Shown: in pieces, positions 2,561 through 58,604 of the stretch
Layout: the number at the start of each line of letters is the position of its first letter
Numbering within the stretch: position 1 is the stretch's first letter
Assembly (NCBI GenBank): GCA_963716935.1
Contig: CAVQUN010000006.1
Span: forward strand, 83,678 to 147,677
Reading direction: 5' to 3'
Origin: an uncultured Actinomycetes bacterium
Lineage (GTDB): Bacteria > Actinomycetota > UBA4738 > HRBIN12
DNA length: 64,000 nucleotides
Position numbers and translations under genes: made by a program
Notes under the pieces: model-generated
What the model was told of the DNA's origin: nothing
What the model saw: only the letters and a program-made list of their open reading frames with translations
Database searches by the model: none

Positions 2561-3730
2561 GTGCCCGAGCCCGAGAACCTCCAGCGCTACGACCTCCCAC
2601 CGGAGCTCGAGGAGTTCCGCGCGCTGGTCCGGCGGATCGCGCAGGAGCGCATCGCGCCTCGCGCCGCCGAGATCGACGAGACGGACGAGTGGCCCGAGGA
2701 CGTGTACAAGGTCCTCGTCGACCACGACCTCATGGGCGTCGGCTACCCCGAGGAGTACGGCGGATCCGGGGGTGGCTCGCTCGCGTTCGGCGTCTTCATC
2801 GAGGAGCTGTCCCGGGTCTCGGCCGGGGTCTCGCTCACGCCGTTGGTCTCCAAGCTGGGCGTGATCCCGCTCACGGTCGCCGGCGACGTCGACAAGGCGG
2901 CCCGCATGACCGAGGGGATCGCCCGGGGCGACCTCCTGATGTCGTACGCCCTCTCGGAGGCGGGCGCCGGCTCCGACCCGGCGTCGATGACGACCCGCTA
3001 CGAGCGCGATGCCGATGCCTGGGTCCTGAACGGGACGAAGCGCTTCATCACGGGAGCCGGGGTGTCGCATAGCTACGTGGTGTTCGCCACGAGCGATCCC
3101 TCGCTGCGCTCCAAGGGCGTCTCGGCCTTCCTGGTGATGAAGGACGACCCGGGCGTCTCCTTCGGCCGCAAGGAGGAGAAGATGGGCATTCGCGGATCGC
3201 CGACGCGCGAGGTGATATGCGACGACACGCGAATCCCGGCCGACCGCCTGATCGGCACCGAGGGCGAGGGGTTCTCGTACGCGATGCGAACGCTCGACTA
3301 CTCGCGCCCGGCGATCGGGGCCCAGGCGCTGGGCATCGCGCAGGGCGCCCTCGACGTCGCGGCGCGCTATGCGACCGAGCGGCGGCAGTTCGGCAAGGCG
3401 ATCGCGGAGTTCCAGGGCGTGTCGTTCATGCTCGCGGACATGGCGATGCAGCTCGAGGCGGCACGGATGCTCGTGTACAAGGCCCTCGCGCTCTGCGACG
3501 CCGGCGATCCGCGCATGACCTACTTCTCGAGCGTGGCCAAGTGCTTCGCCTCCGATGCCGCGATGCGGATCACGACGGATGCGGTCCAGGTGCTCGGTGG
3601 CTACGGCTACCTTCGCGAATTCCCGGTCGAGCGCCTCATGCGCGACGCGAAGATCACGCAGATCTACGAGGGTACGAACCAGATCCAGCGAGTCGTCGTT
3701 GCCCGGGAGCTGCTCCGAGCCTTCGCCTGA
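2561..3730 (+). CDS. acyl-CoA dehydrogenase
   Basis: 389 aa with ACAD-like blocks ([68 protein letters not shown]). GTG start 3 nt after the thiolase stop. Confidence 0.9.
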
Positions 3731-3829: not shown

Positions 3830-5164
3830 CTACAGGACGACCTCGTCGTCCTGGACCTCTTCGAGACCGCCGCCGATCCCGCGCAGCTCCGCCGAGATCG
3901 CCGCGGCATCGAACAGGCCGTCCCCGTCGTCGCCGGATCCGACGAGCGCCCGTGCGAGCGCGATGGCTCGCTCGTCGTCGGGGTCCAACACCCGTGCGGC
4001 GGCGCGATCGTCCACGGACTCCTGTTGCGGCTCCTGTGTACCGGGAAGGAACACGCGGAACGATGCGCCGCCGCCGGGATGCTCCTCGACCCAGGCCCTG
4101 CCGCCGTGGATCTCGGCCAGCCTCGCCAGCAGGGTGAGCCCCGTCCCGCCTCTCGGCCGATGCCGAGCTGCGGGACCTTCGTCCGACAGGGCTGCGACCA
4201 TGGCACCCCGCAGCCCTGGCGGTACTTCGGGACCGGTGTCGTCGACGGCGATGACGGCACCGCCCTGGTCCGAGGAGATCTTCACCCACACCGTGTTGCC
4301 CGGTGCGGTCCTTCGGCCTGCGTTCGACAGGAGCGTCTCGACCATCTGCTCCGTGAGCGCCGGGTCCACCTCGAGCGCGATGTGCTCGGCGTCGACCTTG
4401 ATGTCTCGGTTCGCGAGGTCGGGTGACTCCTCCACGACCCGGCGCACGAGCGCCTCGATGTCGGTCCTGCGCAGGTTCGGCTCGTAGGTGCCGTTCGCGA
4501 TCTTGTCCAGGGCGAGCATCTCGCCGACGAGGCGATCGAGCTTGCGCGCGTTCGTCGCGAGCTGCTTCACCATGTCCCCGCCCTCGACCGACTGCGGGTC
4601 GGCGTGCTTGAGGGCGAGGGTCAGCCCGAGGATCGAGGTGAGCGGCCGGCGCACGTCGGCGGCGACGGCCTCCTGGAGCGCCGTGCGCTCGTCGTCGACG
4701 ATCACGGTCACGTGCGGCTGAGCCTCCGCCTCGGCCGAGCGGGCCTCGAGTGCCTGGATCTGCTCCTCCATGATCCGCGACCGATCCAGGGCGATCTGCA
4801 GCCGCTGCTCGGCACGGCGGGCGCGTTCCTCGCCCTCGGTCTGTCCTTCGCGGGTCGACTGCAGCATCTCGAGCAGCTCGGCGTGCTTCGAGGCACCCTG
4901 CGCGAGCTGCTCGTCGGCGGCGCGCCAACGCAGCTCGGCCTCGCGCGCGTCCTCCTCCGCCTTCATGAGCCGTTCGGCCGCCTGTTGCAGCTCGTCGGCG
5001 GCCTGCGAAACCTGGAGGCCAGCGACGGCGATCAGCCGGGCGAGGCCCTCGGTCTCCGGCTGCGCGGCCTCGGCCGTCACCGCGTCGGTGTGCATCGCCT
5101 CCGTCGCTTCGTCCGACGTCGGCTCCGCGGCCGGTGCCTCCGTCAACTCCTTCGTCTTCGCCAC
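3830..5164 (-). CDS. Soluble histidine-kinase-like protein (coiled-coil N-terminus, degenerate H-box, HATPase_c-like domain)
   Basis: 444 aa with no TM segment. The N-terminal ~150 aa are E/A/R/Q-rich and heptad-like. The DHp-like helix reads AADVRRPLTSILGL where SHELRTPLTSI is expected. N-box LLSNAGRRT, G1-like VDDTGPEV, G2 GGTGLTLLARL. GTG start with GAGGTGA upstream. Confidence 0.8.
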   Translation of the reverse strand: MAKTKELTEAPAAEPTSDEATEAMHTDAVTAEAAQPETEGLARLIAVAGLQVSQAADELQQAAERLMKAEEDAREAELRWRAADEQLAQGASKHAELLEMLQSTREGQTEGEERARRAEQRLQIALDRSRIMEEQIQALEARSAEAEAQPHVTVIVDDERTALQEAVAADVRRPLTSILGLTLALKHADPQSVEGGDMVKQLATNARKLDRLVGEMLALDKIANGTYEPNLRRTDIEALVRRVVEESPDLANRDIKVDAEHIALEVDPALTEQMVETLLSNAGRRTAPGNTVWVKISSDQGGAVIAVDDTGPEVPPGLRGAMVAALSDEGPAARHRPRGGTGLTLLARLAEIHGGRAWVEEHPGGGASFRVFLPGTQEPQQESVDDRAAARVLDPDDERAIALARALVGSGDDGDGLFDAAAISAELRGIGGGLEEVQDDEVVL

Positions 5165-5171
5165 CCCAGGA

Positions 5172-6437
5172 TCACCTCACCCGTTCCGGTGCGGTCTGCC
5201 CCGACTCGTTGCGAATGATCACCGGGTGTTCGAAGAGGTCGTCCTTCTCCTCGATCTCGATGTCCTCCTGCTCATAGCCGCGCAGCGCCTCCGTGAGCTT
5301 CGCCATGTGGAACTTCGCCGTCGTGTGCTCCAGCTCGTACTCGAGTCGGTCGATCTCCTGCTCCATCTCGGCGGCGCGGACGCCGGCCGCCTCCAGGCGG
5401 GCACGCAGCTCGTCGTCTCCGCCCGCCCGCAGCTCGGAGAGGATGCGACGCGCCTCGTCCAGTTCTTGCTGGCGAAGCGACATCCGCTCGCGGATCGCGT
5501 TGTTGTCCAGCTCCGCCTGGTGCAGCCGCTCGGAGGTCTCTCGCAGCTGCTCGCGCAGCGCCGTGAGCTCGCCGTCGTTGGTGCCGGTCCTCGCCTCGTT
5601 CATCGCGAGCTGTCCCTCGAGCTCCTTCACCTGGGCCAGGGCCTCCTTCAGTCGCTTCTGTACCGCTCGGAAGTTCTCCTCCACCGCGCTCGCCCGCCGC
5701 TCCGCCTCCTGCCGCTGCTCCTCGATCGCGCGGAACCCGGGCTGCTCGTAGATCGGCGTCTCGAAAGAGGCCGGCGCGGTGTCGCGAGGCATGCGGCGGG
5801 GAACCGCCGACGTGTAGAACTGGGCCGGGGCCGTGGCGCTCGCGCCCGCCCGGGTGGTGACCACGACCATGCCGAGGCAGCCGAGCAGGAGCAGGCCGGA
5901 CAACATCGCGACCCGCGACCAGCCCGCGGTCGCCTCGGAGACGATGGGTCCGATCGGCTGGGACAGCTCCGCGACGGCGACGTCCCCGCCCGAGCTCAGC
6001 CAGATCGGCACATAGGTCTGCAGGAGGCCGTCGCGAACGACACTCGTGGTGTCGCCGCTCGCAACCTCGAACGTGAGGTTGCGTAGATACGACGGTCGCG
6101 TGCCGACGAACTTCGGATCCGAGGCGTACAGGATCCGCCCGAGGGCCGAGAAGATCCGCACGTCGTCGACGGGGGTGACCGAGATGATGTTCGCGTCGAT
6201 GGCGCTCGCGAACTCCGTCGCGCGCTCGCCGGTGATCGGGTTCGCGAGGTCGCGCGGCTGCAGCAGCGCGGCGAGCTCGGTCTTCGCGGCGAGCGCCGCG
6301 TCGCCCTCGGCCCTCGCCTTGGCCTCCGAGCGCGCGTTCGCCGCCGCCCAGACCGACAGGCCGAGGGCAACGGCGAAGAGGAACGCGAACGTGCCCCAGA
6401 GTGGGCGCCGTTCCCGTCGTGCCAAGGATCCCAACAT
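5172..6437 (-). CDS. Two-TM membrane protein with an extracytoplasmic domain and a long cytoplasmic coiled-coil (sensor-like, no catalytic domain)
   Basis: TM1 is LWGTFAFLFAVALGLSVWAAA and TM2 is VAMLSGLLLLGCLGMVVVTT, with ~145 aa between them. The C-terminal ~190 aa are E/R/L/Q-rich. ATG 6437 is preceded by AGAGGGGA; an alternative GTG lies at 6458. Confidence 0.75.
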   Translation of the reverse strand: MLGSLARRERRPLWGTFAFLFAVALGLSVWAAANARSEAKARAEGDAALAAKTELAALLQPRDLANPITGERATEFASAIDANIISVTPVDDVRIFSALGRILYASDPKFVGTRPSYLRNLTFEVASGDTTSVVRDGLLQTYVPIWLSSGGDVAVAELSQPIGPIVSEATAGWSRVAMLSGLLLLGCLGMVVVTTRAGASATAPAQFYTSAVPRRMPRDTAPASFETPIYEQPGFRAIEEQRQEAERRASAVEENFRAVQKRLKEALAQVKELEGQLAMNEARTGTNDGELTALREQLRETSERLHQAELDNNAIRERMSLRQQELDEARRILSELRAGGDDELRARLEAAGVRAAEMEQEIDRLEYELEHTTAKFHMAKLTEALRGYEQEDIEIEEKDDLFEHPVIIRNESGQTAPERVR

Positions 6438-6628
6438 CTCGGTCCCCTCTCGAGACACTCAGGGCGTCGTCTCTGGACGTTTCGCCTCGTATCGGCTCGT
6501 AGGCACCGGGGATGTAGTCCCCCCGATGGGGGAAATGGCCCGGAATGACTAGTCGGTGCCTGGACGACGGGCTCGGGGGACGCCAAACGGCCCGGTCCGC
6601 TCCTGCGAGGCGCGTCCCAGGCGTCCGG

Positions 6629-6634
6629 TACGCT
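6629..6634 (+). promoter_or_regulatory. -10-like hexamer TACGCT, candidate leaderless promoter of the nurA operon
   Basis: TANNNT hexamer 7 nt upstream of GTG 6642, with no SD. Confidence 0.35.
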
Positions 6635-6641
6635 TCGACCC

Positions 6642-7703
6642 GTGGCTCAGGCGGAGGGTGCGCGCGTGCTCAGCCTCGATCTCGTCGAGCGCGGCGACCT
6701 CGAGGAGGCGGCCTCCTTCGTGGTGGACCTGCTCGACCGACCCTCGTCGGAGATCCACGTGCTCGAGGGTCAGCTCGGTCTGGACGAGGCGCTCGTGGTC
6801 CCCGGCGACCCGGGCTCCTTCGAGCTCGAGGCGGTGGCGACCGCCGATCCGGGGGTCGTGTGGGCGATCGACGGCGGCTCCTGCGTGGTGGCGGACGGGC
6901 GGTCGTTCCAGGTGGCCGGATTCCGGGCCGCTCGTGTTCGGTTCGCGGGCGGCTCGACGGTTGCGGTCGAGCGGGCGCCGCTCACCGTGCGCGCCGTCTC
7001 CCCCGAGGTGATGGACCGGCTGGCGCGGGCGACGCTGACGGAGCTCTGCGGCGTCGAGCCCGAGCGGCTGCCGGACCTGCCGCGGCCCGTCGACGCCCTC
7101 CGCGAGTGGGCCGAGTGGGAGGCGGTCGGCAGGACCGTGCGCGAGGCGGCCGCGGGGGACCTCGTCCTCGTCGACGGCTCGCTCCACGGCGGCCCGCTCG
7201 TTCCCCAGGTCGTCGTCCAGCGCGTCCACGCCGACGCCGTCGCGCGGGGCGTCTCTCTCGCCGGGGTCGTCAAGGCGTCCACGCTGTACTGGGGCCGGAG
7301 CGCGCCGCTCGTCACGCTGCTGAAACGTCGGGGCGATCGCGAACGAGGCCCCACGCGATGGGCCGCCCGGATCTCCACGGATCCCGTGTTCGGGAGGCTC
7401 TACGTGGGCGACATCCTCGTCGCCCACCTCGCGCCCACGGCCGCGCACGCCTTCCGGGTGGACGTGGCGCGGGGGCCCGCCGACCGGCGCGAGGTGCTCG
7501 GCCGGCTGGCCGGGCTCGCCGAGGACCCGGCGTTCGTCGGCTATCCGTACCCGCTCGCCCGCGCCCACCAGGCGGCCCGGGTCACGGGCTACGACGTCGT
7601 CGACGTCCGGCGTTCGTTCCGGGACGCGCTCTCGAGCGCGGGCATGGCGCAGAACGACGTCGAGCTGCTGTTCCAGGACTTCCACGAGGTGCTCAACCGA
7701 TGA
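6642..7703 (+). CDS. nurA: NurA-like 5'-3' nuclease
   Basis: 353 aa with blocks WAIDGGS, DLVLVDGSLHG and DPAFVGYPYPLARAHQAARV, as in NurA-domain proteins. The stop overlaps the herA start (ATGA). Confidence 0.75.
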   Translation: MAQAEGARVLSLDLVERGDLEEAASFVVDLLDRPSSEIHVLEGQLGLDEALVVPGDPGSFELEAVATADPGVVWAIDGGSCVVADGRSFQVAGFRAARVRFAGGSTVAVERAPLTVRAVSPEVMDRLARATLTELCGVEPERLPDLPRPVDALREWAEWEAVGRTVREAAAGDLVLVDGSLHGGPLVPQVVVQRVHADAVARGVSLAGVVKASTLYWGRSAPLVTLLKRRGDRERGPTRWAARISTDPVFGRLYVGDILVAHLAPTAAHAFRVDVARGPADRREVLGRLAGLAEDPAFVGYPYPLARAHQAARVTGYDVVDVRRSFRDALSSAGMAQNDVELLFQDFHEVLNR

Positions 7704-9325
7704 CGGGGGGCTTGGGGGGCTCAAGAAGCGAGCGCGAAGGCGCGAGCGGTAGCCCCCCGAGAATCGAGTACAAGGGCCGGATCTTCGGCCGGCACGTGCT
7801 CGAATCGACCTTCCGCTCGTTCTACGGGACCGACCTGTTCCTGGGCGAGCTCCTCGCGGCCGAGGACTCCGAGCGCGGGCGACGGTTCCTCTTCCGCGTG
7901 ATCCAGGTCACGTACGGCTCGGATTCGTCGGACCCGTCCTGGTCGGAGCGCACGGCCGGCGCATACATGTCGGGAGACCTGGCCGGCACCGAGTACCGGC
8001 TCCACGACCCCGAGCAGCGCCTTTACAAGGTCGCGACCTGCCAGCCGCTCGGTTACATCGACGCCGCGGGGGCGTTTCGAAAGCCGAAGTCCCTGCCGGC
8101 GCAGTTCGCGCGGGTGACGGCGCCGACCGCGGCGGACTTCGACTTCCTGCGCGAGCGGATGGGAGACGTCCACGTCGGTTTGCTGCGATCGGGCGAGGAC
8201 ACCATCGACCTCGAGGTCGGGATCCGCGGGGAGACGCTCACCTCCCACGTCGGCGTCTTCGCCACGACCGGCATGGGCAAGTCGAACCTGATGAAGGTGC
8301 TCGCCGGCCAGATCCTCGCCTCGCGCGGCCGCTACGCCTGCCTGCTGTTCGACCCGCACGGCGAGTATCTCGAGGGCGGAAGCGGGACGCGACGGGGGCT
8401 CCGCGATCACCCTTGGGCCGCGGATCGCCTTCGCGTCTACGCGACCCGGGCCGCCGGGGCGGGCGCGACGGCGCTTCGCCTGTCGCTCGCCGAGCTCACG
8501 CTCGGCGACCTCCAAACCGCGTACGAGTGGAGCCACGCGCAGGAAGACGCGATCTATCGCCTCGTCCGCGCGTTCCGCGAGGAGTGGATCGTCCAGGTGG
8601 CGGAGGAGCCCGACGTCGCGCTGCTCGCGGAGCAGCTCGGCGCCGCCACGAGCACGATCCAGGTGATCCAGCGGCGCGCGCAGCGCATCCTCGACATGCC
8701 GTGCATCTCCCGCGATCCATCTCAGCCGTCGCTGTCCGCCCGCATCGTCGACGAGCTCATGGAGGGCTACTCCGTGTTGGTGGACACGAGTGGCCTGTCC
8801 TCCATGGAGGAGATCCTCGTCGCCTCCGTCATCACGCGAAGGGTCCTGGACGCCTACGCGAACGTCTACCTCGACGATCGCGACCGCTTCGCCGCGCTGC
8901 CGCCCACCCTGGTCGCGCTCGAGGAGGCACAACGCGTGCTGTCGCGCGTCGCCCGCTCGGACGAGAACGTCTTCCCGCGGGTCGCGCGCGAGGGTAGGAA
9001 GTTCAAGGTCGGCCTGTGCGCCGTTTCGCAGCAGCCGAAGCTGATCGACGACGAGCTCCTGTCACAGTTCAACACGTTCTTCGTGCTCGGCCTGGCCGAC
9101 GAGAAGGATCGGAACATCCTTCGCGCGAGCTCGAAGCAGGACGTGTCGGATCTCGGCCCCGAGATCCAGACGCTGATGCCCGGCGAGGCCATCGTGACGA
9201 ACCTGGAGGCGCCGTTCGCGCTCCCGGCGCAGATCTACCTGTTCGAGGACTACCTGAAGTCGGTGTCGGGCCCGACGCCGCTGCCGCCGCGACCCGAGGA
9301 CGCGTCGCGGGGATTCGCCGAGTGA
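7700..9325 (+). CDS. herA: HerA-like hexameric DNA translocase/helicase ATPase
   Basis: Internal ATG 7700 of ORF 6545-9325. Walker A is GVFATTGMGKSNL and Walker B-like is TLVALEEAQRVL. REGRKFKVGLCAVSQQP is typical of HerA/DUF87 ATPases. Confidence 0.8.
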   Translation: MTGGLGGSRSEREGASGSPPRIEYKGRIFGRHVLESTFRSFYGTDLFLGELLAAEDSERGRRFLFRVIQVTYGSDSSDPSWSERTAGAYMSGDLAGTEYRLHDPEQRLYKVATCQPLGYIDAAGAFRKPKSLPAQFARVTAPTAADFDFLRERMGDVHVGLLRSGEDTIDLEVGIRGETLTSHVGVFATTGMGKSNLMKVLAGQILASRGRYACLLFDPHGEYLEGGSGTRRGLRDHPWAADRLRVYATRAAGAGATALRLSLAELTLGDLQTAYEWSHAQEDAIYRLVRAFREEWIVQVAEEPDVALLAEQLGAATSTIQVIQRRAQRILDMPCISRDPSQPSLSARIVDELMEGYSVLVDTSGLSSMEEILVASVITRRVLDAYANVYLDDRDRFAALPPTLVALEEAQRVLSRVARSDENVFPRVAREGRKFKVGLCAVSQQPKLIDDELLSQFNTFFVLGLADEKDRNILRASSKQDVSDLGPEIQTLMPGEAIVTNLEAPFALPAQIYLFEDYLKSVSGPTPLPPRPEDASRGFAE

Positions 9326-9347
9326 GGCTCCCCGCGCCGGACCGCTG

Positions 9348-10478
9348 ATGGCGCGGATCGTCGCATTCGGCGATGCGCACCTCGGCCGGACCCACCTCGC
9401 CCACGTCCGGGACGACAGGGGGCGGAACCTTCGCGAGGAGGATTTCCTCCGCTCGTTCGTCTGGGCGGTGGAGGAGACCCTGCGGCAGGAGCCGGACGGC
9501 TTCCTGTGGCTGGGCGACGTCTTCGATCTGGCCAGGCCCACGTATCGAACGTTCGCCCAGGTCCTGGCCGGCCTGCAGCGGCTGGCGGACGCGGGCCTGC
9601 GTGGCGTCGCGATCAGCGGGAACCACGACACGCCCCGCGTGCGGGGGACCGGATCGCCGTACGACGCCCTCGAGCGAGTCTTCCCCAACGTGACCTTCGC
9701 CTGGCGGATGGAGGCGGTCGCGACCGAGCTCGCCGGCGTGCTCGTGCACGCCGTCCCGCAGACCCTGTCGGTGGAGGACCTTCGCCGCGAGCTGGATGCC
9801 GCGGCGGCCGCGACCCGGGGCGACGCCACCAACGTGCTCATCGCGCACGTGGCCCTGACGTCGCTGCCCGCCCGCTCCTATCGGGACATCAACGAGCTCG
9901 AGGTGGAGGAGGCCGCGTTCGACCGCGGGTTCGACCACGTCGTGCTCGGCCACTACCACGCGTTCCAGAAGGTCTCCAAGCGGACCTGGTACGCGGGCTC
10001 CACCGACACGTTCTCGTTCGCGGACTCGCCCGAGGCGGAGAAGGGGATCCTCGTCCTCGACACGGATGCCGGCCGCGTCGAGCACGTCGCGAACCCCGGC
10101 GAGCGGGCGCTCGTGACCCACTCGGTGCCGGCGGCGGCCATGTCGGCCGGCGAGCTCGTCGACGCGGTCGAGCGCGCCGCGAAGGGGAGCCCCGAGGGCG
10201 CCGTCGTGCGCGTCTACCTGAACGAGGTGGACCCGGCCTCGTTCCGCCAGGTCGCGACCGAGCAGTTCCAGGAGGCCGTTCCGGGCGCGCTCTGGGTCCA
10301 GGTCGAGCCGGACTTCGGCGGGCGGCCGTTCGCCGTCCAGGGGGCCCCGACGGTGGGCTCGCTCGAGGCCGAGTGGGCGGCCTACGTGGAGCTGCAAGAT
10401 CTCGCCGGCCTCGAGCGGCCGCGCGTCGTCGCGCTCGGCACCCGATTCCTGGAGGACGCGCGCGGGGAGACGGTGTGA
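9348..10478 (+). CDS. mre11: Mre11/SbcD-family nuclease (metallophosphoesterase)
   Basis: 376 aa with phosphoesterase motifs AFGDAHLG, WLGDVFD, ISGNHD, LIAHVAL and LGHYHAF. Confidence 0.85.
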   Translation: MARIVAFGDAHLGRTHLAHVRDDRGRNLREEDFLRSFVWAVEETLRQEPDGFLWLGDVFDLARPTYRTFAQVLAGLQRLADAGLRGVAISGNHDTPRVRGTGSPYDALERVFPNVTFAWRMEAVATELAGVLVHAVPQTLSVEDLRRELDAAAAATRGDATNVLIAHVALTSLPARSYRDINELEVEEAAFDRGFDHVVLGHYHAFQKVSKRTWYAGSTDTFSFADSPEAEKGILVLDTDAGRVEHVANPGERALVTHSVPAAAMSAGELVDAVERAAKGSPEGAVVRVYLNEVDPASFRQVATEQFQEAVPGALWVQVEPDFGGRPFAVQGAPTVGSLEAEWAAYVELQDLAGLERPRVVALGTRFLEDARGETV

Positions 10479-12757
10479 GGGCCCTCGAGCTCTCCCTGCG
10501 GAACTATCGGGTGTTCGAGGAGGTCGACCTCGAGCTGCCGGCCCGGGTGATCGGGATCTTCGGCGAGAACGGGAGCGGCAAGACCACGCTGCTCGAGAGC
10601 ATCGCGTTCGCGCTGTACGGCGTCGACGCGGCGCGCACGAAGAAGCAGCACATCCGCACGCATGGCATCCTCACCGACTGCGAGGTGCGCCTGGTCTTCG
10701 AGCACGCCGGCAACGAGCACGAGGTTCGGCGTTCGATCCGCGGCAAGGGCCACACGCCCGAGGCGGAGCTGTTCGGGGGCGGGCTCCTCCTCGCGTCGGG
10801 GACCACCGACGTGGACGCCGAGATCCGCCGGCTCCTCCACATGGACCTGCAGGTCTTCCGCTCCTCCGTCTACGCCGAGCAGAAGCAGCTGGACGCGTTC
10901 TCCTCCCTTCGCCCGGGAGAGCGCAAGGAAACGGCGCTCCGCCTGCTCGGGATCAAGCCCGTCGACGACGCTCGGTCCGCCGCGCGGCGGGAGTCGCGCG
11001 CCGTGAAAGAGAGCGCAGGCCAGCTCGCGGGGGCGATCGGCGACCTCGCCGCCCTCGAGGCGGACGTCAAGGAGGCCGGGGACGGCGCCGCCGAGTCGAA
11101 GAAGCTCGCAAAGGCCGCGGCCGCGCGCGTTCGGGCCGCGGGCGCGGCCGAGCGCGCCGCGCGCACGGCGTTCGCCGAGATCGACCGTACGCGCGAGCAC
11201 GTCCAGCGACTCACCATCCAGCTGTCCGCGAAGACCGAGCAGCGCGACGCCACCGAGGAGCAGCGGGCGCTGCTCGCGAACCGGGTGGACGAGCTCACCG
11301 AGGCGATCGCCGAGCTGTCGACGCTCGAGGCCGAGCTCGCGGCGCTCGCGGGCATCGACGATCGGCTCCGGGCCGCGCTTCGCGTGGGCGAGGCGGCGGG
11401 CCGGCTCGCCGCGGCCGAGGCGGACCTCGAGGCGCTCCCGGAGTCCGCGTCCGCCGCGGCCGAGGCGGACCTCGAGGCCGCCGAGGCGGCGCTCGCGGGC
11501 GCGCGCACCGCGGCGGCCGGCGCCGACGCGCTGCTGGGGCAGGCCCGCTCGCAGCTCGCGGCGGCGGGCGAGCGGCTGGACCGGGCCGCCGAGGCCGACC
11601 CGTCGCAGCCCTGCCCGACCTGCGGCCGTCCGCTCGGCGACGACTTCGCCGGCTACGTGAAGCATTGCCGGGCGGCCGTCGCGGAGGCCAAGCGAGCCGC
11701 CGCGGCCGCGGATCGGGACGCGAAGGAGGCCGCGCGGGCCCTCGCCGCGGCCGAGCGGGCTCGAGAGCTGGTCGTCGCCCAGGGACGTCGCGTGGTGCAG
11801 GCCGAGCGTCGGCGCGTCCAGCTGGCCGACCAGGTCGAGGCCCTGCGGACGGAGGTCCTGGAGCTCGGCGCGCCGTTCGGCGGCGAGGTTCCCGACGTCG
11901 CGGAGCTTCGCGCCCGAGCCGACGAGGCGCGGACGATCGGCAAGCGCGTCGCCGAGCTGGGGGCCGATCGCCGGCACCTGCAGGCGGCGGAGAAGGACCT
12001 CGCCGCCGCGGCCCGGCGGCTCGAGACGCTCGAGCGTGAGCTCGCGGCTCTCGCGGGCCAGGCGGAGGGACTCGCGTTCGACCCCGCAGAGCACGAGCGC
12101 CTCGGGTCCGAGCTCCGGGAGGCCGACGCCGTGCTGGACGCCGCCCGCGCGGACGAGCGCGACGCGGGCGACGCGCTCCGGGAGGCCGAGAAGCGGCTGA
12201 GCGAGCTCACGGGTGCGCTCGGCCAGGCGAGGGAGACGTCGGCGCGCGTCGACGAGCTCCGGTCGGAGGCCCGCTACGTCGAGCGCGTCGCCATGCTGCT
12301 GGACGGGTTCCGAGACCACCTGGTCGCCCGGGTGGGTCCCGAGCTCTCGCGCGAGGCCGAAGCGTTGTTCCGGGACCTGACCGGCCACGAGTACGCGGAC
12401 CTTCGCGTCGACGAGGAGACGCTCGCGATCCAGATCGCCGACGGCGACACCTACTTCCCCATCGACCGCTTCTCGGGGGCCGAGACCGACCTCGCGAACC
12501 TCGCGCTCCGCGTGGCCATCTCGGCGCATCTGTCCCGCGTGTCGGGCGCCGACGTGGGCCTGCTCGTCCTGGACGAGGTCCTGGCCTCGCTCGACGAGGA
12601 GCACAAGGACCTCCTGGTGCAGGCGCTCGGCGCGCTCTCGTCCCGCTTCCACCAGCTGTTCGTCATCACCCACGCCGAACGCGTGAAGGACCAGTTCCCC
12701 GCGTCGATCCTCGTCCGCAAGACGGCTCGCCGGCGGGCCGCGGTCGAGCTCGTCTAG
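10475..12757 (+). CDS. rad50: Rad50/SbcC-family ATPase with CxxC zinc hook
   Basis: GTG 10475 overlaps the mre11 stop (GTGA). Walker A is FGENGSGKTTLLE. A long Ala/Glu/Arg coiled coil carries a central QPCPTCGRPL hook. Signature FSGAETDLANLALR and Walker B LLVLDEVLASLD. 760 aa. Confidence 0.85.
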   Translation: MRALELSLRNYRVFEEVDLELPARVIGIFGENGSGKTTLLESIAFALYGVDAARTKKQHIRTHGILTDCEVRLVFEHAGNEHEVRRSIRGKGHTPEAELFGGGLLLASGTTDVDAEIRRLLHMDLQVFRSSVYAEQKQLDAFSSLRPGERKETALRLLGIKPVDDARSAARRESRAVKESAGQLAGAIGDLAALEADVKEAGDGAAESKKLAKAAAARVRAAGAAERAARTAFAEIDRTREHVQRLTIQLSAKTEQRDATEEQRALLANRVDELTEAIAELSTLEAELAALAGIDDRLRAALRVGEAAGRLAAAEADLEALPESASAAAEADLEAAEAALAGARTAAAGADALLGQARSQLAAAGERLDRAAEADPSQPCPTCGRPLGDDFAGYVKHCRAAVAEAKRAAAAADRDAKEAARALAAAERARELVVAQGRRVVQAERRRVQLADQVEALRTEVLELGAPFGGEVPDVAELRARADEARTIGKRVAELGADRRHLQAAEKDLAAAARRLETLERELAALAGQAEGLAFDPAEHERLGSELREADAVLDAARADERDAGDALREAEKRLSELTGALGQARETSARVDELRSEARYVERVAMLLDGFRDHLVARVGPELSREAEALFRDLTGHEYADLRVDEETLAIQIADGDTYFPIDRFSGAETDLANLALRVAISAHLSRVSGADVGLLVLDEVLASLDEEHKDLLVQALGALSSRFHQLFVITHAERVKDQFPASILVRKTARRRAAVELV

Positions 12758-13536
12758 GGCGCGGGCTCCTCGCGAACGGCGGTCTCGGCGAACGCGCCGC
12801 CGTCCCACTCGAGCGTGGTGATCCGGTAGGAGCTCGGGCAACAGTGCGAATCGCCGGGCTCGAACACGGCCTCCCGGAGCTCGAGGTGGTCGCCCGCGAT
12901 CGCGAACTGCGCGTCGCACGTGCGGCGATCCAGGGCCTGGACCGCCCCGCCGGCGAACGGCGCGACGACGCGCCACCGGCCGCACGCCCCGCTTCCGCCC
13001 GTCTGCTCGAACGTGAGGGCGTCCACGACGCCGTCGCGCGTGACGTCCGCCGCGTCGAGCGTGATGCCGAGGACGCCCTTGGCCGGTGGGTCCGTGAACG
13101 CGTGGGTGGCCCGCCACGCGGGCGCGTCGGCGACGCGCTCCCAGAGCACCACGCCGAGCTCTCGCGCGAACGGGTCCGCGCCGCGACCCCACACGACCCA
13201 CGCGAACCCCGGGATCTCGCCGGAGGGCTCGGTGAGCACCGCGTCGAGCACCTCGGCCCCGGGGGGAGCGAGGGGCTCGAACGGACCGTCGGCGCTCACC
13301 TCGCCGTCGAACGCCGTCGGGGCGTCGACGGGGAGCTGCAGGACGGGCTCGGGCGTCGGGCTCGGGCTCGGCGTGGGCGTGGCGCCCGACTGGCTCGGCG
13401 AGCCGGTCGACGGCGAGCTCGTCTGGCTCGACGGGCGCTCGCTCGGGCTCGAGCTCGTGGACTGCGTCGGCGATGCGTCGCCTCCCGTCTGGCAGGCGGC
13501 GAGGCAAAGCGCGAGCGCGACGAGGGCTCGTCTCAC
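12754..13536 (-). CDS. Lipoprotein of unknown function
   Basis: Signal peptide with lipobox LAAC, a Ser/Pro/Thr-rich linker, then a ~180-aa domain ending DSHCCPSSYRITTLEW. The GTG start overlaps the upstream stop (GTGA). Confidence 0.7.
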   Translation of the reverse strand: MRRALVALALCLAACQTGGDASPTQSTSSSPSERPSSQTSSPSTGSPSQSGATPTPSPSPTPEPVLQLPVDAPTAFDGEVSADGPFEPLAPPGAEVLDAVLTEPSGEIPGFAWVVWGRGADPFARELGVVLWERVADAPAWRATHAFTDPPAKGVLGITLDAADVTRDGVVDALTFEQTGGSGACGRWRVVAPFAGGAVQALDRRTCDAQFAIAGDHLELREAVFEPGDSHCCPSSYRITTLEWDGGAFAETAVREEPAP

Positions 13537-14264
13537 GTCGCGTAGTGCTGAGCGAGCTCAGACGCGACGTATCGCGAGCCGTCATCGGTCAGGTGCCCGC
13601 GATCGTCGCGGTATTGCGCGCACGCGGCGAGCAGCGGGTCCGGTCCGGCGACGACATCGGATCCATCGGCGACCTCGGCGATGATGTCCTTCATCACCGG
13701 GTTCATCCCTGAGGCGTCCACGATTCCTCCGATCGAGGTCGGGTAGGGACAGGGTTGGGCGTCGGGTCCGCCGACGATGGGGATGAGCTCGACGACCCGG
13801 ACCGTCGGCCACCTCGCCCGCATGTTCGCGATGGATGCCTCGAGGTCCGCCACCACCTGGGCCTGGGGAAGCGTTCGCCAGTCCTTCGCCGCGACCTGGA
13901 AGAGGATTCGGTCAGGATCTCGATCACACGGGGAGAAGAGGGGCTCGGAAAATCCCGGCTCGGATGGGTCCGCCCAGAGCTCCACGTCGTGCCCGCTCGG
14001 CGCGAGGAGCTCCCAGGCCTTGTCCCGGATGCCCTGCTCCTGCTCGAACCCTCCGCCCCGGAACCAGTCCTCGGTCACCGAGAACCCGATCACCAACGTG
14101 CAGCTCCCCGAGGGACGACCGGATGGACTGACGACCGGGCGCGGTGATGCGGATGGGCTCGCCGATACCGGCGGACGCCGGGAGGGTCGCGCGCGCGGCT
14201 CGTGGGTCTGACGGCAGGCAACCAACGCGAGCAGGACGAGCATGAAGGGGAGGGATCGGCGCAT
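13533..14264 (-). CDS. Lipoprotein, possibly SGNH/GDSL-like fold
   Basis: Lipobox LVAC and a Pro/Ser linker. A weak SGNH-like pattern is present (IGFSVT near the N-terminus, DDRGHLTDDG near the C-terminus). The functional call is tentative. Confidence 0.6.
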   Translation of the reverse strand: MRRSLPFMLVLLALVACRQTHEPRARPSRRPPVSASPSASPRPVVSPSGRPSGSCTLVIGFSVTEDWFRGGGFEQEQGIRDKAWELLAPSGHDVELWADPSEPGFSEPLFSPCDRDPDRILFQVAAKDWRTLPQAQVVADLEASIANMRARWPTVRVVELIPIVGGPDAQPCPYPTSIGGIVDASGMNPVMKDIIAEVADGSDVVAGPDPLLAACAQYRDDRGHLTDDGSRYVASELAQHYAT

Positions 14265-14883: not shown

Positions 14884-17619
<2,736 letters not shown>

Positions 17620-45708: not shown

Positions 45709-46542
45709 GTGAGGATCGTCGTGACCGGGGCCGGGGGCGGCCTCGGGCGCGCGTTCGTCGCGGCGTGCCCGTCCCATCACGACGTGGTTCCGCTCGCGCA
45801 CACGGATCTGGACGTCGGCGATCACCACGCGGTGCTGCGAACGATCGTTCCCCTCGCGCCCGAGCTCGTCGTGAACGCCGCGGCCTTCACCAAGGTCGAT
45901 GCGTGCGAATCGGAACCCGAGCGCGCCCTTCGCGCCAACGCCGTTGGGCCGCAGTCGCTCGCGCTCGCCGCGCGCGCGTGCGGCGCCGTCCTGCTCCACG
46001 TCTCCACGGACTACGTGTTCGACGGCGAGAAAGGCTCCGCCTACGACGAGCTCGACGAGCCGAACCCGCTGAGCGTCTACGCGCGGACCAAGCTCGCGGG
46101 CGAGCGCCACGTGCGCTCCCTGGCTCCGGAGTCGTTCCTCGTGCGAACGGGCTACGTGTTCGGCGGCGGCGGCGACTACCTCATGGGGGCGCTGCGCCGA
46201 CTCTCGGCGGGCGAGGACGCCGGCGGGCTGACGGATCGAATCGGCACACCCACCTACGTCGTGCACCTCGCGGAGCGGTTGCTGCCCCTGGCCCTGACCC
46301 ACCGGTTCGGCACGTATCACCTCGCCGGCCCCGAGGCGACGACGTGGTTCGACGCGCTCGCTCGGGCGGTCGCGATCGGCGGGCTCGCGGGCGCGCCTCG
46401 TGAGCAGCGAGCGGAGGAGCTCGGGCTCCCTGCGCCACGACCGCGCAACAGCGCCCTCACGAGCGCCTACCTACCGCACCTGGACGTCCCCGCGTTCCCG
46501 CCGTTGGACGCCGCGATCGGCGCCGTGATCGCGTCGCTCTAG
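45709..46542 (+). CDS. rmlD: dTDP-4-dehydrorhamnose reductase
   Basis: 277 aa with RIVVTGAGGGLG, VNAAAFTKVDACE, STDYVFDG and YARTKLAGE. GGGAGGG SD upstream of the GTG. Confidence 0.85.
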   Translation: MRIVVTGAGGGLGRAFVAACPSHHDVVPLAHTDLDVGDHHAVLRTIVPLAPELVVNAAAFTKVDACESEPERALRANAVGPQSLALAARACGAVLLHVSTDYVFDGEKGSAYDELDEPNPLSVYARTKLAGERHVRSLAPESFLVRTGYVFGGGGDYLMGALRRLSAGEDAGGLTDRIGTPTYVVHLAERLLPLALTHRFGTYHLAGPEATTWFDALARAVAIGGLAGAPREQRAEELGLPAPRPRNSALTSAYLPHLDVPAFPPLDAAIGAVIASL

Positions 46543-54603: not shown

Positions 54604-56121
54604 ATGCGAAGACTCTTCCTTGCCCTGTCCGCGGTTCTGCTGGTCGCGCTCGCGCCGGCGCCGGGCGCGCTCGGCCAGAACCAGCCGAAGGACTTCACCT
54701 TCTTCGGCTCGGGCTTCGGCCACGGGCTCGGGATGTCCCAGTGGGGGGCGTACGGCCTCGCGCTCGACGGCTGGAGCGCCAAGGAGATCCTCACCCACTA
54801 CTACTCGGGCACGAGCGTCGTGAAGGAGGGCTCGCCCCCCGATCGTCTGCGCATCGGGCTCGTGCAGGCGGAGGCCTCGGTTCACCTCGAGGCGCAGGAG
54901 GGCGACGTCGAGCTCCGGCTCGGCGATCGCAAGTCAGGCGACGTCGTCGCCACGATCCCGGACGGTGAGAGCTGGCGGGTACGGGCCTCCGACGGCGAGT
55001 ATCGGATCGTCGACGCGGGCGGCGCCACCGTCGGGCGGTTCGGCGGGCCGGCCGAGCCGATCTTCGCCGTCTTCCAGCCGCAGGGTGTGCGGGTACGCGT
55101 CCCCGAGGCCGGCCACACCTACAACCGGGGCTGGATCGAGTTCGGGCTGTACGGCTGCGGGGGCTCGTGCGATCTGCGGCTGATCCTCGAGGTCACGCCC
55201 CAGGAGTACCTGTACGGGCTCGGCGAGGTGCCGAGCTCGTGGCCGATGGCCGCGATGCAGGCGCAGGCCATCGCCGCCCGGACCTATGCGTTCACGAAGG
55301 CGGCCGCCTCGCAGCACCGTTCGGGATGCGACTGCGCCCTGTATGCCAGCTCCTTCGACCAGGTCTACGCGGGATGGGACAAGGAGGGCGGAACCGACGG
55401 CGATCGGTGGGTGCAGGCCGTGGATCACACCGAGGACAAGGTCGTGGCCGAGGCCGGGACCACGATCCAGGCGTTCTACATGTCGTCCTCGGGCGGGTTC
55501 ACCGAGGACAACGAGAACGTGTGGGGCGGAACCCCGATCGAGTACCTGCGCGGCGTGTGCGATCCCGGCGACTACACGGCTGAGAACCCGAGCGCCATCT
55601 GGCAGACGACGGTCGCCGCGCCGAAGCTCACGAAGAGCCTCGCGCTCGGCATCGGCACCGTGACCGGGTTCGCGAACCCGGTCCGCGGGATCTCGGGACG
55701 GATCATCTCGATCACGGTGCAGGGCGAAAAGAGCTCGACGCCGATCAGCGGGACGGTGCTTCGGTCCGCGCTCGGCCTGCGCGACGACCGCGTGTGGATC
55801 AACCGCGATCGGCAGATCGTCGGCGCGATCCGCCAGAAGTACGACGCGCTCGACTGCGCGCCCGGCCTGGCCACCTCCGCCCAGGTCCCGGTCGCCGGAG
55901 GGCTGCGGCAGACCTTCGAGGACGCCACGATCTACTTCAAGGCGGGCGCGGGCGTCCACGCGCTCCGCGACCCCGTGCTCGCGTTCTACCGGGATCGGGG
56001 AGGGCCCGGCGGCAGGCTCGGCTTCCCGACCTCCGACGTCCGGACGATGCCGAACGGCAATCTGCGGGCGAGCTTCGAGAACGGCAGGATCACCTGCCAC
56101 GAGAGCGACTGCTCTGCCTAG
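54604..56121 (+). CDS. Secreted SpoIID/LytB-domain protein with a C-terminal LGFP repeat
   Basis: ATG 54604 and a signal peptide LFLALSAVLLVALAPAPGA. GHGLGMSQWGAYG, EYLYGLGEVPSSWPMAAMQAQAIAARTYA, FYMSSSGGFTE and GGRLGFPTSD. Confidence 0.8.
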   Translation: MRRLFLALSAVLLVALAPAPGALGQNQPKDFTFFGSGFGHGLGMSQWGAYGLALDGWSAKEILTHYYSGTSVVKEGSPPDRLRIGLVQAEASVHLEAQEGDVELRLGDRKSGDVVATIPDGESWRVRASDGEYRIVDAGGATVGRFGGPAEPIFAVFQPQGVRVRVPEAGHTYNRGWIEFGLYGCGGSCDLRLILEVTPQEYLYGLGEVPSSWPMAAMQAQAIAARTYAFTKAAASQHRSGCDCALYASSFDQVYAGWDKEGGTDGDRWVQAVDHTEDKVVAEAGTTIQAFYMSSSGGFTEDNENVWGGTPIEYLRGVCDPGDYTAENPSAIWQTTVAAPKLTKSLALGIGTVTGFANPVRGISGRIISITVQGEKSSTPISGTVLRSALGLRDDRVWINRDRQIVGAIRQKYDALDCAPGLATSAQVPVAGGLRQTFEDATIYFKAGAGVHALRDPVLAFYRDRGGPGGRLGFPTSDVRTMPNGNLRASFENGRITCHESDCSA

Positions 56122-56825
56122 CGCACGAACAAGGGGCCGAGGAGCCCGCGCGGGGCCTCGGGCGCGTTCGTCGTGCCCCGGTAGGCGTCGACGAATCCCT
56201 GCGCGATCGTGACCGCCTGCTCCGCCGAGACGTCCGACGGGCACATCCAGCGGGTGTTCCATGCGACGAGCGCCAGCGCGCGACCGGTCGGGAGGTTCGG
56301 GTAGGGGGCCATGATCACCCTGCTCTGCTCGTTCGCGAACGCCTCGAGCGCGTCGACCGCGTCGGCCGAGAGCCCGCCGTCGGCCGTGATGCGGTACCAG
56401 ATGAGGACGTAGGCGTGCTCGAGGTTGTGCACGGCTCGCGTCTCGGGGACGGGGTCGGCGTACACGTGCGGGTCGGGCGGCAGTGGGGTGGGATCGTGCG
56501 GCCCGGCGGCGGGCGGCGGATCGGGGTAGGTGAACGTGTCGCCCGGGGCGAGGTGGGCGCGGCTCGGGTTCGGGGTCACCGGGCGCTCGAGGTCGTCGCA
56601 GCCGGCGGCGCCCGCCGCGCTCTCGGCCGCAGGCGAGATCGTCCCCGGCCCCGGCGCCCGGATGAACAGCACCCAGCCGAGCACGAGGGCGGCCGCCAGC
56701 AGGGCGGCGCGGCGGACGAGGGTGCCGCGTGAGCGCCCGGGAGCCGGCGCAGGCGCCGGCTTCGTTCGCGAAGGCCCACCGCCCTTCGACGGGGCTCGGT
56801 GGGATCGCTTCCGGGTCTTGGCCAC
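56118..56825 (-). CDS. DUF3105-like membrane-anchored protein
   Basis: Basic N-terminus MAKTRKRSHR, one TM helix, then GPHDPTP, VHNLEHAYVLIWY and VAWNTRWMC. Confidence 0.7.
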   Translation of the reverse strand: MAKTRKRSHRAPSKGGGPSRTKPAPAPAPGRSRGTLVRRAALLAAALVLGWVLFIRAPGPGTISPAAESAAGAAGCDDLERPVTPNPSRAHLAPGDTFTYPDPPPAAGPHDPTPLPPDPHVYADPVPETRAVHNLEHAYVLIWYRITADGGLSADAVDALEAFANEQSRVIMAPYPNLPTGRALALVAWNTRWMCPSDVSAEQAVTIAQGFVDAYRGTTNAPEAPRGLLGPLFVR

Positions 56826-56828
56826 CGC

Positions 56829-57679
56829 CTACGGCTGGACGACGCTGAAGTCGAACGAGCTCGGGATCGGGTCCGGGAGCTCGTCCTTCGAGCCATAGGT
56901 CACGACGATCACGGACTGATCGTCGAGGGGGACGTTGCGGAACGGCACCGTGACCTCCTGGCCGCCCTGATAGACGCGGAGCTTCGCGTCGGAGGCGTTG
57001 CAGTACCCGCCCAGACACGTCTGGCTGAACCGCACGCCCCACACGTCGAAGAACTGCCCGAGGTTGAAGTCGGCGACCGTGCTCGACTCGATGTGCACGA
57101 CCCCGTCGTCCGAGTGGGTGTGGATCGACTGCGATGTCGCCGGTGGCTCTCGTTGATGCCGACGTTGACCGGGATCGTCACCGGGCTCCCGTGGACGAAG
57201 ATCTGGACGTTCACGTGGTTGTGCATGGCGAGCGTGTCGGCGTGCGCCGGCAGGCCGATCGCGTCGGCGCGCGCGGCCGCCTCCTCCGCGTTGGCCGGCC
57301 ACGGGGCCTCGGTCGTGAGCTCGCCGGGAAGAGCGTCCGGGCGGGTCGTGTCCTTGGGCCGAGCGATGAGGAAGACCGACACGGCGACGACGGCCGCGAT
57401 GCCGCCCACCCAGGCGAGCCGCCGCAGCTGCTCGCCGCGCCGCACGCGCCGCCGGATGTCCTCGCGCTGGCGCCGGGCGAGCTCCTTCTTCTCGGCCCGG
57501 GTCCGCTGCGGGGTCGACGTCGGGCGCTCGCCGGTTCGCGGCGGCTCGGACGGCGCTCTCGTGTCGGTCTTCGTCGCGGTCCGCTCTTGCGGCTTCGCGC
57601 CGTCCGTGGACCCGTCTGCCGTCCGCGACGCAGCGGTGGTTCGGGGCCGGGTGCTGGGCTTGCGTCGCTTCTTCGCCAT
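56829..57679 (-). pseudogene. Membrane-anchored His-rich extracytoplasmic protein, frame-shifted near 57150
   Basis: Frame A (start 57679) reads MAKKRRKPS..., a TM helix, ...HNHVNVQIFVHGSPVTIPVNVGINES, then junk. The second frame (ORF 56829-57302) continues ...IHTHSDDGVVHIESSTVADFNLGQFFDVWGVRF...VVTYGS to the stop at 56829. Confidence 0.65.
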
Positions 57680-57702
57680 CGCGCCGGTTCCTTCCGATCG
57701 CC

Positions 57703-58449
57703 TCAGAAGGCGAGGCCCGCCTCGGGTGCGTCCCCGAGGTATGTACGGCGCCCGTAGGGCGGTGCGCCGTACTTCGCGGCGAAATCGAACGCCGCGGCCA
57801 GGCTGACCTGCCCGCAGGTCTGCACGTGGTGCCAGGACACGAGCGCCATCTCCGTGCCCGACGGCAGGCTCCCCGCCGCCCCCTGGGCCGGGTAGTCGTA
57901 CGGCGCGACGATCACCCGGGCCCCGGCCGTCGACTGGTCGAAGAACGTGCGGAGGCGCTCGAGCTCAGCCCCGCTCGCGTCCGGCGCGTACCAGATCACG
58001 GCGGCGCCGTGCTCGAGCGAGTGGACGACCCGATCGATGTCGGGAGGCGCGTCGTAGACGCCGGGTCCCTGCGTCACGGCGTTGTGCGGCCCCGACGCGG
58101 GCGGTACCGACGGGTAGGTCGACAGCGGCGGCATCTGCCCGCTGATGTGCACGCGATCCTGGTCCTCGGGCTGGTAGGGACCGACGTCTTCGACGGCGCC
58201 GCAGCCGGCCGCCTGCTTGGCGTCCGCGGCGACCCGGAACAGGTCGCCGGGCGTGGCGATGGCCGTCGACGGTCGCGTCAGCGCGAAGGTCGCCACTCCC
58301 ACCGCGATGGCGAGCACGACGACGAGCGCCAGCCGCCGGTTCCGCTTCGAGCGGGCGATCCTGCGCTCGATCTCGACGCGCTCGCGCCGCGCCTGCTCCT
58401 TGCGCTCGGCCTTCGTCGTCCGGCCGTTCGTGGTCTGTCGGTTCGCCAT
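57703..58449 (-). CDS. DUF3105-like membrane-anchored protein
   Basis: Internal ATG 58449. Basic N-terminus MANRQTTNGRTTKAERKEQARRER, one TM helix, then SGPHNAV, VHSLEHGAAVIWY and VSWHHVQTC. Confidence 0.7.
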   Translation of the reverse strand: MANRQTTNGRTTKAERKEQARRERVEIERRIARSKRNRRLALVVVLAIAVGVATFALTRPSTAIATPGDLFRVAADAKQAAGCGAVEDVGPYQPEDQDRVHISGQMPPLSTYPSVPPASGPHNAVTQGPGVYDAPPDIDRVVHSLEHGAAVIWYAPDASGAELERLRTFFDQSTAGARVIVAPYDYPAQGAAGSLPSGTEMALVSWHHVQTCGQVSLAAAFDFAAKYGAPPYGRRTYLGDAPEAGLAF

Positions 58450-58604
58450 GGGATCCCGATCACGTCTCGGTGGGCCATCCAGGATACCCACGGGCGCCGG
58501 ATGCGAGCCCCGCCGATCGGCCCGGTGCTTGCGTGACGCGGCGGCCGAGCGCGTCCCAAACGGCGGTGCGATACTCCGCGAGATCGCATAGAGGGGGGAT
58601 CCGG

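Follow-up and report, generated by a model that had tools for sequence, protein, structure and literature searches.

A vertically conserved nurA-herA-mre11-rad50 operon of uncultured Actinomycetota with a putative DNA damage-type leaderless promoter

The stretch of 64,000 nucleotides analyzed here (referred to below as the window) is part of contig CAVQUN010000006.1 from an uncultured Actinomycetes bacterium, and it carries at positions 6642-12757 four genes coding for members of the NurA, HerA, Mre11 and Rad50 families. We consider it probable that this cassette is a chromosomal, vertically inherited DNA-break repair operon of a soil actinobacterium. The evidence carrying this reading comes from direct observation of family membership, motif integrity, translational coupling, gene order and synteny, and promoter conservation. 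The cassette is a vertically conserved and known kind of bacterial arrangement, not a new machine. The one new point is a putative RecA-NDp-like, conserved leaderless promoter upstream of nurA, to which a candidate LexA box corresponds in another clade.

Results

Organization of the cassette

The open reading frame (ORF) list and translations placed the four genes on the + strand in the order nurA-herA-mre11-rad50. The first gene, nurA (6642-7703, +), would code for a 353-amino acid (aa) RNase H-like 5'-3' nuclease, with the motifs WAIDGGS, VLVDGSL and GYPYPLARAH starting at residues 74, 175 and 300 and the residues D77, E158, D178, K211, Y301, H309 and H348. It is followed by herA (7700-9325, +), predicted to code for a 541-aa FtsK/HerA-type hexameric double-stranded DNA (dsDNA) translocase, with Walker A at 188-196 (ATTGMGKSN, K194) and Walker B at 404-411 (LVALEEAQ, E408 and E409). 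The product of mre11/sbcD (9348-10478, +) is a putative Mn-dependent phosphoesterase nuclease of 376 aa. Its motifs I (D9/H11), II (D57), III (N92/H93), IV (H167) and V (H202/H204) include the strings GDAHLG, GDVFD, GNHD and GHYH at residues 8, 56, 91 and 201. The last gene, rad50/sbcC (10475-12757, +), codes for a 760-aa SMC-like ATP-binding cassette (ABC) ATPase. The split ABC ATPase head was complete, comprising Walker A from residue 30 (GENGSGKTT, K36), the Q-loop (Q136), the signature (F666-SGAE), Walker B (LLVLDEV from 696, D700/E701) and the H-loop (H733), with the zinc hook C380-P-T-C383 at the exact center of the protein. The catalytic motifs are intact in all four proteins.

Direct reading of the sequence revealed an ATGA overlap between nurA and herA at 7700-7703, within CGATGACG, a 22-nt gap between herA and mre11 (9326-9347) and a GTGA overlap between mre11 and rad50 at 10475-10478, within GGTGTGAGG. 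The junctions were thus as given in a preliminary description of this DNA, and every motif quoted there was found in its place. The automatic gene call started nurA 8 codons later than 6642, giving a protein of 345 aa; we have preferred the start at 6642 because it fits the comparative promoter spacing described below.

At its 3' end, rad50 meets a convergent gene coding for a lipoprotein-like protein (12754-13536, -), the two stop codons overlapping in the palindrome CTAG (12754-12757) with zero intergenic space. No terminator-like hairpin was found at the rad50 3' end.

NurA is a member of its family by profile and predicted structure

The NurA assignment of ORF 6642-7703 had been the doubtful one of the four, and the preliminary description had set beforehand that the ORF should match NurA profiles or folds. 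The protein scored 32.3 bits against Pfam PF09376 (cut-off 21, expect value (E) 9e-8). A single-sequence search of the PDB was not significant (2ygk, E 0.05). Searching the representatives of 50%-identity clusters exhaustively, we retrieved 509 related clusters, and in a 53-member alignment D77, G78, E158, D178, K211, Y301, GYPxPL and H348 were invariant. The 53-member family profile matched Sulfolobus solfataricus (Sso) NurA 2ygk with an E of 5e-10, the motifs AIDGGS, LMDGSL and GYPFPL being aligned, and D77, D178 and Y301 fell on Sso D58, D133 and Y298. For E158, the alignment was offset from Sso E116 by one helical turn. The catalytic or conserved residues of Sso NurA are D58, E116, D133, K202 and Y298 (PMC3326311), and the invariant D77, E158, D178, K211 and Y301 correspond to them.

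The AlphaFold2 model of NurA, built with 37 homologues in the alignment, reached a predicted local distance difference test score (pLDDT) of 86.7 and a predicted template modeling score (pTM) of 0.85. When the model was compared with the PDB by Foldseek, the first three ranks were all NurA structures, namely 2ygk (S. solfataricus; E 4e-10, template modeling (TM) score 0.54/0.59), 7f6d_G (Deinococcus radiodurans) and 3tai (Pyrococcus furiosus). Other RNase H-like nucleases (Argonaute PIWI, EndoV) occupied lower ranks. Together, the PF09376 score and the top Foldseek matches confirmed NurA as a family member, as judged from profiles and a predicted fold.

HerA, Mre11 and Rad50 resemble archaeal proteins

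HerA matched PF01935 (DUF87) with an E of 3e-24 over profile positions 1-220 of 220. Against the NCBIfam model HerA_Thermprot it scored 90 bits for a cut-off of 800, which is compatible with family membership and not with equivalog-level orthology. Its best PDB match was Sso HerA (4d2i, E 4e-21), ahead of defence-associated HerAs, and the GMGKS (191-195) and EE (408-409) motifs were invariant among relatives.

Mre11 matched Pfam Metallophos with an E of 1.6e-10 and presented all five calcineurin-like phosphoesterase motifs. Its NCBIfam matches were Mre11_Sulfo (1e-15), Mre11_Halo (5e-14) and sbcd (1e-13), with Mre11_Sulfo and sbcd under their cut-offs, and the PDB sequence search returned SbcD and Mre11 structures. 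The C-terminal 142 aa, in which Rad50-binding helices or a capping domain were sought, gave no informative Pfam match.

Rad50 matched the Pfam families AAA_23, SMC_N (residues 5-743) and SbcC_Walker_B. In NCBIfam, the archaeal model PRK03918 (1e-39) preceded sbcc (2e-30), and in the PDB the best match was M. jannaschii Rad50 (E 5e-24), compared with only 2e-8 for Escherichia coli SbcC. The CPTC hook sits within an Ala/Glu/Arg-rich region predicted to form a coiled coil; the predicted arms, of ~230 residues, would be short but in range.

Overall, the four proteins matched archaeal models better than E. coli SbcCD or Deinococcus HerA-NurA (NCBIfam, PDB). The best NCBIfam models were NurA_Sulf, HerA_Thermprot, Mre11_Sulfo and, for Rad50, PRK03918 (136 bits), with SbcD and SbcC close behind. 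The annotation proposed earlier for the four genes was borne out by profile searches, and for NurA also by structure. The same applied to the archaeal type attributed to the proteins, whose best NCBIfam and PDB matches were Sulfolobus/Thermoproteota NurA, HerA and Mre11 and archaeal Rad50.

The cassette is vertically conserved

We have gathered related loci with an 11-sequence NurA alignment and assessed synteny by tblastn, comparing 82 loci with the four cassette proteins and with six proteins encoded in the flanks. The gene order was identical across these loci wherever the cassette was seen, and the four genes stood in order in each of the 48 related loci whose sequence extends 6.4 kb or more past the nurA start. 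In most related loci the cassette had, as in the window, acyl-CoA dehydrogenase/kinase genes on one side and thioesterase/aconitase genes on the other, and this synteny was retained down to 63% NurA identity. HerA identity among relatives was 77-92%, about as high as for the acyl-CoA dehydrogenase and the aconitase encoded alongside. The same neighbors flanked the cassette in the 3.45-Mb chromosome OY969934.1, a metagenome-assembled genome (MAG). Close NurA homologues came only from MAGs of uncultured Actinomycetota, mostly from soil, and already bear the NCBI name "DNA double-strand break repair nuclease NurA".

The same order was also present in a second, distant actinobacterial clade (NurA identity of 40-46%), in a Zixibacteria chromosome (L082) and in a Pontibacillus megaplasmid. 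The latter was revealed by tblastn of HerA against plasmids, a search that gave no close relative, all matches being below 60% identity. In the literature, the four-gene order has been reported for Oceanithermus profundus (PMC5448004), and NurA/HerA homologues of Actinobacteria, Cyanobacteria and Firmicutes are listed in a review (PMC8708640).

The preliminary description had reasoned that a cassette vertically conserved and already characterized across the lineage would not be novel. Vertical conservation was evident from the 48 of 48 ordered loci and from synteny in dozens of species-level genomes. As for prior characterization, the proteins are already named by NCBI and the arrangement is noted in the literature for bacteria, and our literature search found no experimental characterization of an actinobacterial cassette. 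Most of the novelty is gone because the cassette is conserved, named and noted in this way.

Some loci showed local departures. Between herA and mre11, locus L030 carried an inserted class I/II aminotransferase gene (12564-13802, E 1e-39) and L039 an inserted gene for a PIN-domain protein (3056-3592, E 1e-7). In L001/L007 (OY969934.1), an IS110-family transposase gene (16032-17246) stood directly downstream of rad50, displacing the usual lipoprotein gene. The Pontibacillus cassette (L083; Pontibacillus sp. ALD_SL1 plasmid NZ_CP062975.1, 240584-258158) is a Bacillota cassette on a 0.9-Mb non-mobilizable replicon, where it adjoins extra gyrB/gyrA-like genes, a NusG-family gene, a thymidine kinase gene and a UvrD-like helicase gene.

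A conserved, putatively leaderless promoter precedes nurA

The gene upstream of nurA is divergent, so the cassette would need its own promoter in the 184-nt gap. The putative promoter occupies 6613-6634 (+) and consists of a CGTCCcag element, an 8-nt spacer (gcgtccgg) and the -10 hexamer TACGCT (6629-6634). The GTG start of nurA (6642) follows this hexamer after 7 nt, a spacing from which the mRNA would be leaderless. A scan of 6300-13800 for sigma-70 and intrinsic-terminator consensus sequences returned no match, a result that carries no information for a promoter of the actinobacterial kind.

Upstream sequences from 69 related loci were anchored on nurA. Within otherwise diverged intergenic DNA, they shared the block (T/C)GTC(G/C/A)-g-a/g-g, 8 nt, TA(T/C)(C/G)CT, 6-8 nt, ATG/GTG, with GTC conserved in 95-98%, the G two bases before the hexamer in 92% and TA..CT in ~100%. 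The pattern YGTC-N12-TANNNT-N5-9-RTG fitted 62 of the 69 loci (52 unique sequences), and among the unique sequences 20 had a spacer of 6 nt between the -10 hexamer and the start, 29 a spacer of 7 nt and 3 one of 8 nt. Leaderless actinobacterial mRNAs show such a spacing. This conservation supported the earlier guess, drawn from TACGCT at 7 nt before the GTG, of a leaderless promoter. As a control, TANNCT-N5-9-RTG sites were counted over all loci. Of the 175 found, 68 had GTC at the corresponding position, and these were essentially the nurA promoters.

The block resembles RecA-NDp, the mycobacterial RecA-independent DNA-damage promoter with the consensus tTGTCRgtg-8nt-TAnnnT (PMC5656591), which is activated by PafBC (PMC6789036, PMC8223512). 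The two have the same architecture, that is, a GTC core, 12 nt and TANNNT, with exact spacing. The full TGTCR form was present in 20 of the 52 unique relatives (TGTCG in 15 and TGTCA in 5).

The distant actinobacterial clade presented a different element. Six of its seven loci (L074, L076, L077, L079, L080 (~3300-3400) and L081) carried GAAC-N4-GTTC just after the TACGCT hexamer upstream of nurA, and the RecA-NDp-like element was absent there. GAAC-N4-GTTC forms the core of TCGAAC(N4)GTTCGA, the LexA box of mycobacteria (PMC3381160). In the window itself, the search for LexA boxes gave one site, at 45839, far from the cassette and at chance level, and no SOS box at the cassette. That the cassette carries a different putative DNA-damage control element in each of two clades is the best available argument for its function.

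The CGTCC promoter variant in metagenomes

Metagenome contigs were scanned for CGTCC-N2-G-N6-GGTAC-N-CT-N6-8-RTG, the form of the element found in the window. At least 120 stretches matched, many of them by chance, and among the stretches listed 28 had an ORF of at least 90 codons, rich in GC at third codon positions (GC3), starting at the RTG. Among the matches listed, the genes that start behind the variant included lexA, priA and two of the DinB superfamily (L094, L197/L179, L132, L183; high-GC contigs).

An unannotated 122-aa protein (M..FQAYCG..PRFANRIE.ECAKILDYYGVPWDYEP...) recurred directly after CGTCCGAG-N8-GGTACCCT-N7-ATG. Six copies, with five distinct sequences, were on L101, L121, L123, L129, L159 and L196 among the matches listed (L121 = L159). 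The protein had no Pfam or NCBIfam match and a weak PDB match to T7 endonuclease I (E 0.009). Judging from its recurrence after this motif, it may be an uncharacterized member of the same damage regulon.

Genomic context

The GC content of the window was uniformly high (0.69-0.75; host, 71%). In the flanks of the cassette are genes for a thiolase, an acyl-CoA dehydrogenase, a histidine kinase and the coiled-coil membrane protein accompanying it, the lipoprotein-like protein, a thioesterase, an aconitase, pyruvate:ferredoxin oxidoreductase (PFOR), acetyl-CoA synthetases and cell-envelope enzymes. No mobile, methylase or defence genes were seen in or next to the cassette, and scans for Rfam families and tRNAs found none in the window.

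Two neighbors were considered as a fifth component and rejected, one (5172-6458, -) being a membrane-anchored coiled-coil protein co-oriented with the histidine kinase and the other (12754-13536, -) the lipoprotein-like protein, rich in Ser and Pro. The former, of 428 aa and with only weak SMC coiled-coil matches, is encoded by a gene that overlaps that of the sensor histidine kinase in a two-gene unit divergent from nurA (3830-6458, -). This unit was syntenic with the cassette in closer relatives and absent from distant ones. Elsewhere in the window, two DUF3105 proteins are encoded near each other (56118-56828 and 57703-58656, -; within 56118-58656).

Discussion

A probable DNA-break repair operon and how it would work

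If the cassette is the DNA-break repair operon that we favor, DNA damage would bring a PafBC-type activator to the RecA-NDp-like element, which lies 8 nt ahead of the -10 hexamer. The activated promoter would then give a leaderless polycistronic mRNA of the four genes, and the stop/start overlaps (ATGA, GTGA) would couple their translation. An Mre11 dimer and a Rad50 dimer, the latter ATP-gated and tethered by the CPTC hook, would recognize and trim the broken end. The HerA hexamer would pump the duplex into a toroidal NurA dimer, where NurA would degrade the 5' strand and leave a 3' tail for RecA.

Several results weigh against this reading. All four proteins scored far lower than the NCBIfam equivalog cut-offs, which makes them distant relatives of the characterized archaeal enzymes, and the HerA N-terminus (residues 1-167) had no Pfam HAS-barrel match even at an E of 1. 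Compared with RecA-NDp, the window and its subclade have CGTCC in place of TGTCR, with two mismatches (C for T and C for R). The single-site match in the window was also at chance level (1 found vs. 0.82 expected), and for this reason the promoter assignment in the window rests on positional homology and conservation. The scan for the CGTCC variant is suggestive but does not formally test enrichment; of the two lexA matches, one (L185) had the motif inside the coding region. Finally, a 2026 study argued that archaeal HerA-NurA degrades both strands and may target foreign DNA rather than serve resection (PMC12977600).

Alternative explanations

The last point leads to the alternative of a defence system, which the preliminary description had also raised and which we regard as unlikely. 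HerA-NurA would shred incoming linear dsDNA of phages or plasmids, with the Rad50-like and Mre11-like proteins as end sensor and effector, as in Lamassu, MADS, TdpAB or further systems that pair HerA with a nuclease. An antiviral role of archaeal HerA-NurA has recently been proposed (PMC12977600), the NurA family profile also matched the defence nuclease TdpB (E 1.5e-6), and PADLOC gave domain-level matches, which for HerA were to mad8 and to generic models of defence HerAs (80 bits) and for Rad50 to mad3 (89 bits), LmuB (75 bits) and PbeC/DndD. However, NurA and Mre11 had no PADLOC match and no complete system was reported, so that this evidence stays at the domain level. The repair-type matches were stronger, with 78 bits for Sso HerA vs. 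at most 53 for defence HerAs, and with the archaeal Rad50 score of 136 bits given above. Unlike defence islands, which turn over fast, the cassette has a fixed syntenic site among housekeeping genes and an identity equal to that of core enzymes in dozens of species; it has no adjacent methylase, mobile or other defence genes, and no close relatives on plasmids. Damage-inducible repair is favored over phage defence because promoter signatures of the DNA-damage-regulon type appear to be present in two clades.

Still less likely is that the cassette comprises two independent pairs, with Mre11-Rad50 acting separately from HerA-NurA, for example in SbcCD-like hairpin cleavage at forks, and with their linkage reflecting co-regulation only. 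In Deinococcus and Thermus, nurA-herA function with no sbcCD linked to them, and the phenotypes of bacterial herA/nurA deletions are mild or unexpected (PMC8708640, PMC5448004, PMC12977600). Against such a separation stand the strict order and translational coupling, which hold for all 48 loci and extend to other phyla, as well as the physical interaction of archaeal Mre11 with HerA (PMC2288612).

The least probable explanation is the recent transfer from archaea or thermophiles suggested earlier, which would have brought heat, radiation or desiccation tolerance and would be in line with the archaeal best family and structure matches of all four proteins, with relatives that, judged by their record titles, come from soils and deserts and with a literature that treats bacterial nurA-herA as archaeal imports (PMC5448004, PMC12977600). 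No sign of it was found, since GC content, GC3 (0.92-0.95 in the cassette) and codon usage (distances of 0.34-0.87 for the four cassette genes vs. 0.27-0.97 for 19 other genes of the window, whose GC3 range also covers that of the cassette) were indistinguishable from the flanks, the scores far under the archaeal cut-offs indicate deep divergence, the same syntenic site is kept in dozens of genomes and the cassette recurs in the second actinobacterial clade, Zixibacteria and Bacillota, and the promoter is of the native actinobacterial type. The nurA-first order also differs from the archaeal order, which is herA-mre11-rad50-nurA. An ancient transfer of the cassette is possible.

Implications

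Beyond the repair operon as such, we would propose, with somewhat less than even confidence, that in a large group of uncultured mesophilic Actinomycetota of soils and deserts the cassette has long belonged to the damage regulon and been passed on vertically, wired to PafBC/RecA-NDp in one clade and to LexA in another, and that it is perhaps their principal resection machine. If true, this would be the first bacterial regulatory evidence for HerA-NurA working with Mre11-Rad50 in repair rather than in antiviral DNA destruction, a question that the 2026 study has raised again for archaea. The two independent putative damage-promoter signatures make the repair-vs.-defence debate on HerA-NurA directly testable. 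They also hint that the PafBC-type regulon reaches deep-branching uncultured Actinomycetota with the variant element CGTCC. In abundant mesophilic soil bacteria the "thermophilic-archaeal" four-gene resection operon is a stable part of the core genome, and it is present in other bacterial phyla too. The basic annotation is unchanged and is already provided by public pipelines.

Comparison with known systems

The archaeal operon (Sulfolobus, Pyrococcus) has the same four families linked and co-directional in one operon. Both share the D/E/D plus K/Y residues of NurA, the Walker motifs of HerA, the Mre11 phosphoesterase and the Rad50 ABC head with its CxxC hook. The host studied here is, in contrast, bacterial and mesophilic, nurA opens the operon rather than closing it, Rad50 is shorter (760 aa) and the putative promoter is an actinobacterial leaderless one of the RecA-NDp-like kind.

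The tandem of D. radiodurans and Thermus thermophilus is likewise bacterial and has nurA before herA, and our NurA model matched D. radiodurans NurA in the HerA-NurA complex (7f6d_G) with a Foldseek E of 1.4e-6. The known pairs, however, are without linked sbcCD, and at the thresholds used the window NurA profile and HerA matched by sequence the Sulfolobus and not the Deinococcus proteins.

Closest in layout are the cassettes of O. profundus, Pontibacillus and Zixibacteria, of identical order and content; in Pontibacillus the four products are annotated as NurA, ATP-binding protein, metallophosphoesterase and SMC family ATPase. Identities to these were 27-50% (35-50% for HerA) and their flanks are different. 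No RecA-NDp-like promoter was seen upstream of the cassette in the Zixibacteria locus.

With Sir2-HerA, DUF4297-HerA, TdpAB, Lamassu LmuB and MADS mad3, the cassette has ATPase folds in common, and TdpB is NurA-like. Its match to these HerA/Rad50-like defence systems was weaker than to repair proteins, and it differs from them in having a canonical Mre11, a zinc hook, a core-genome site and putative damage-type promoters.

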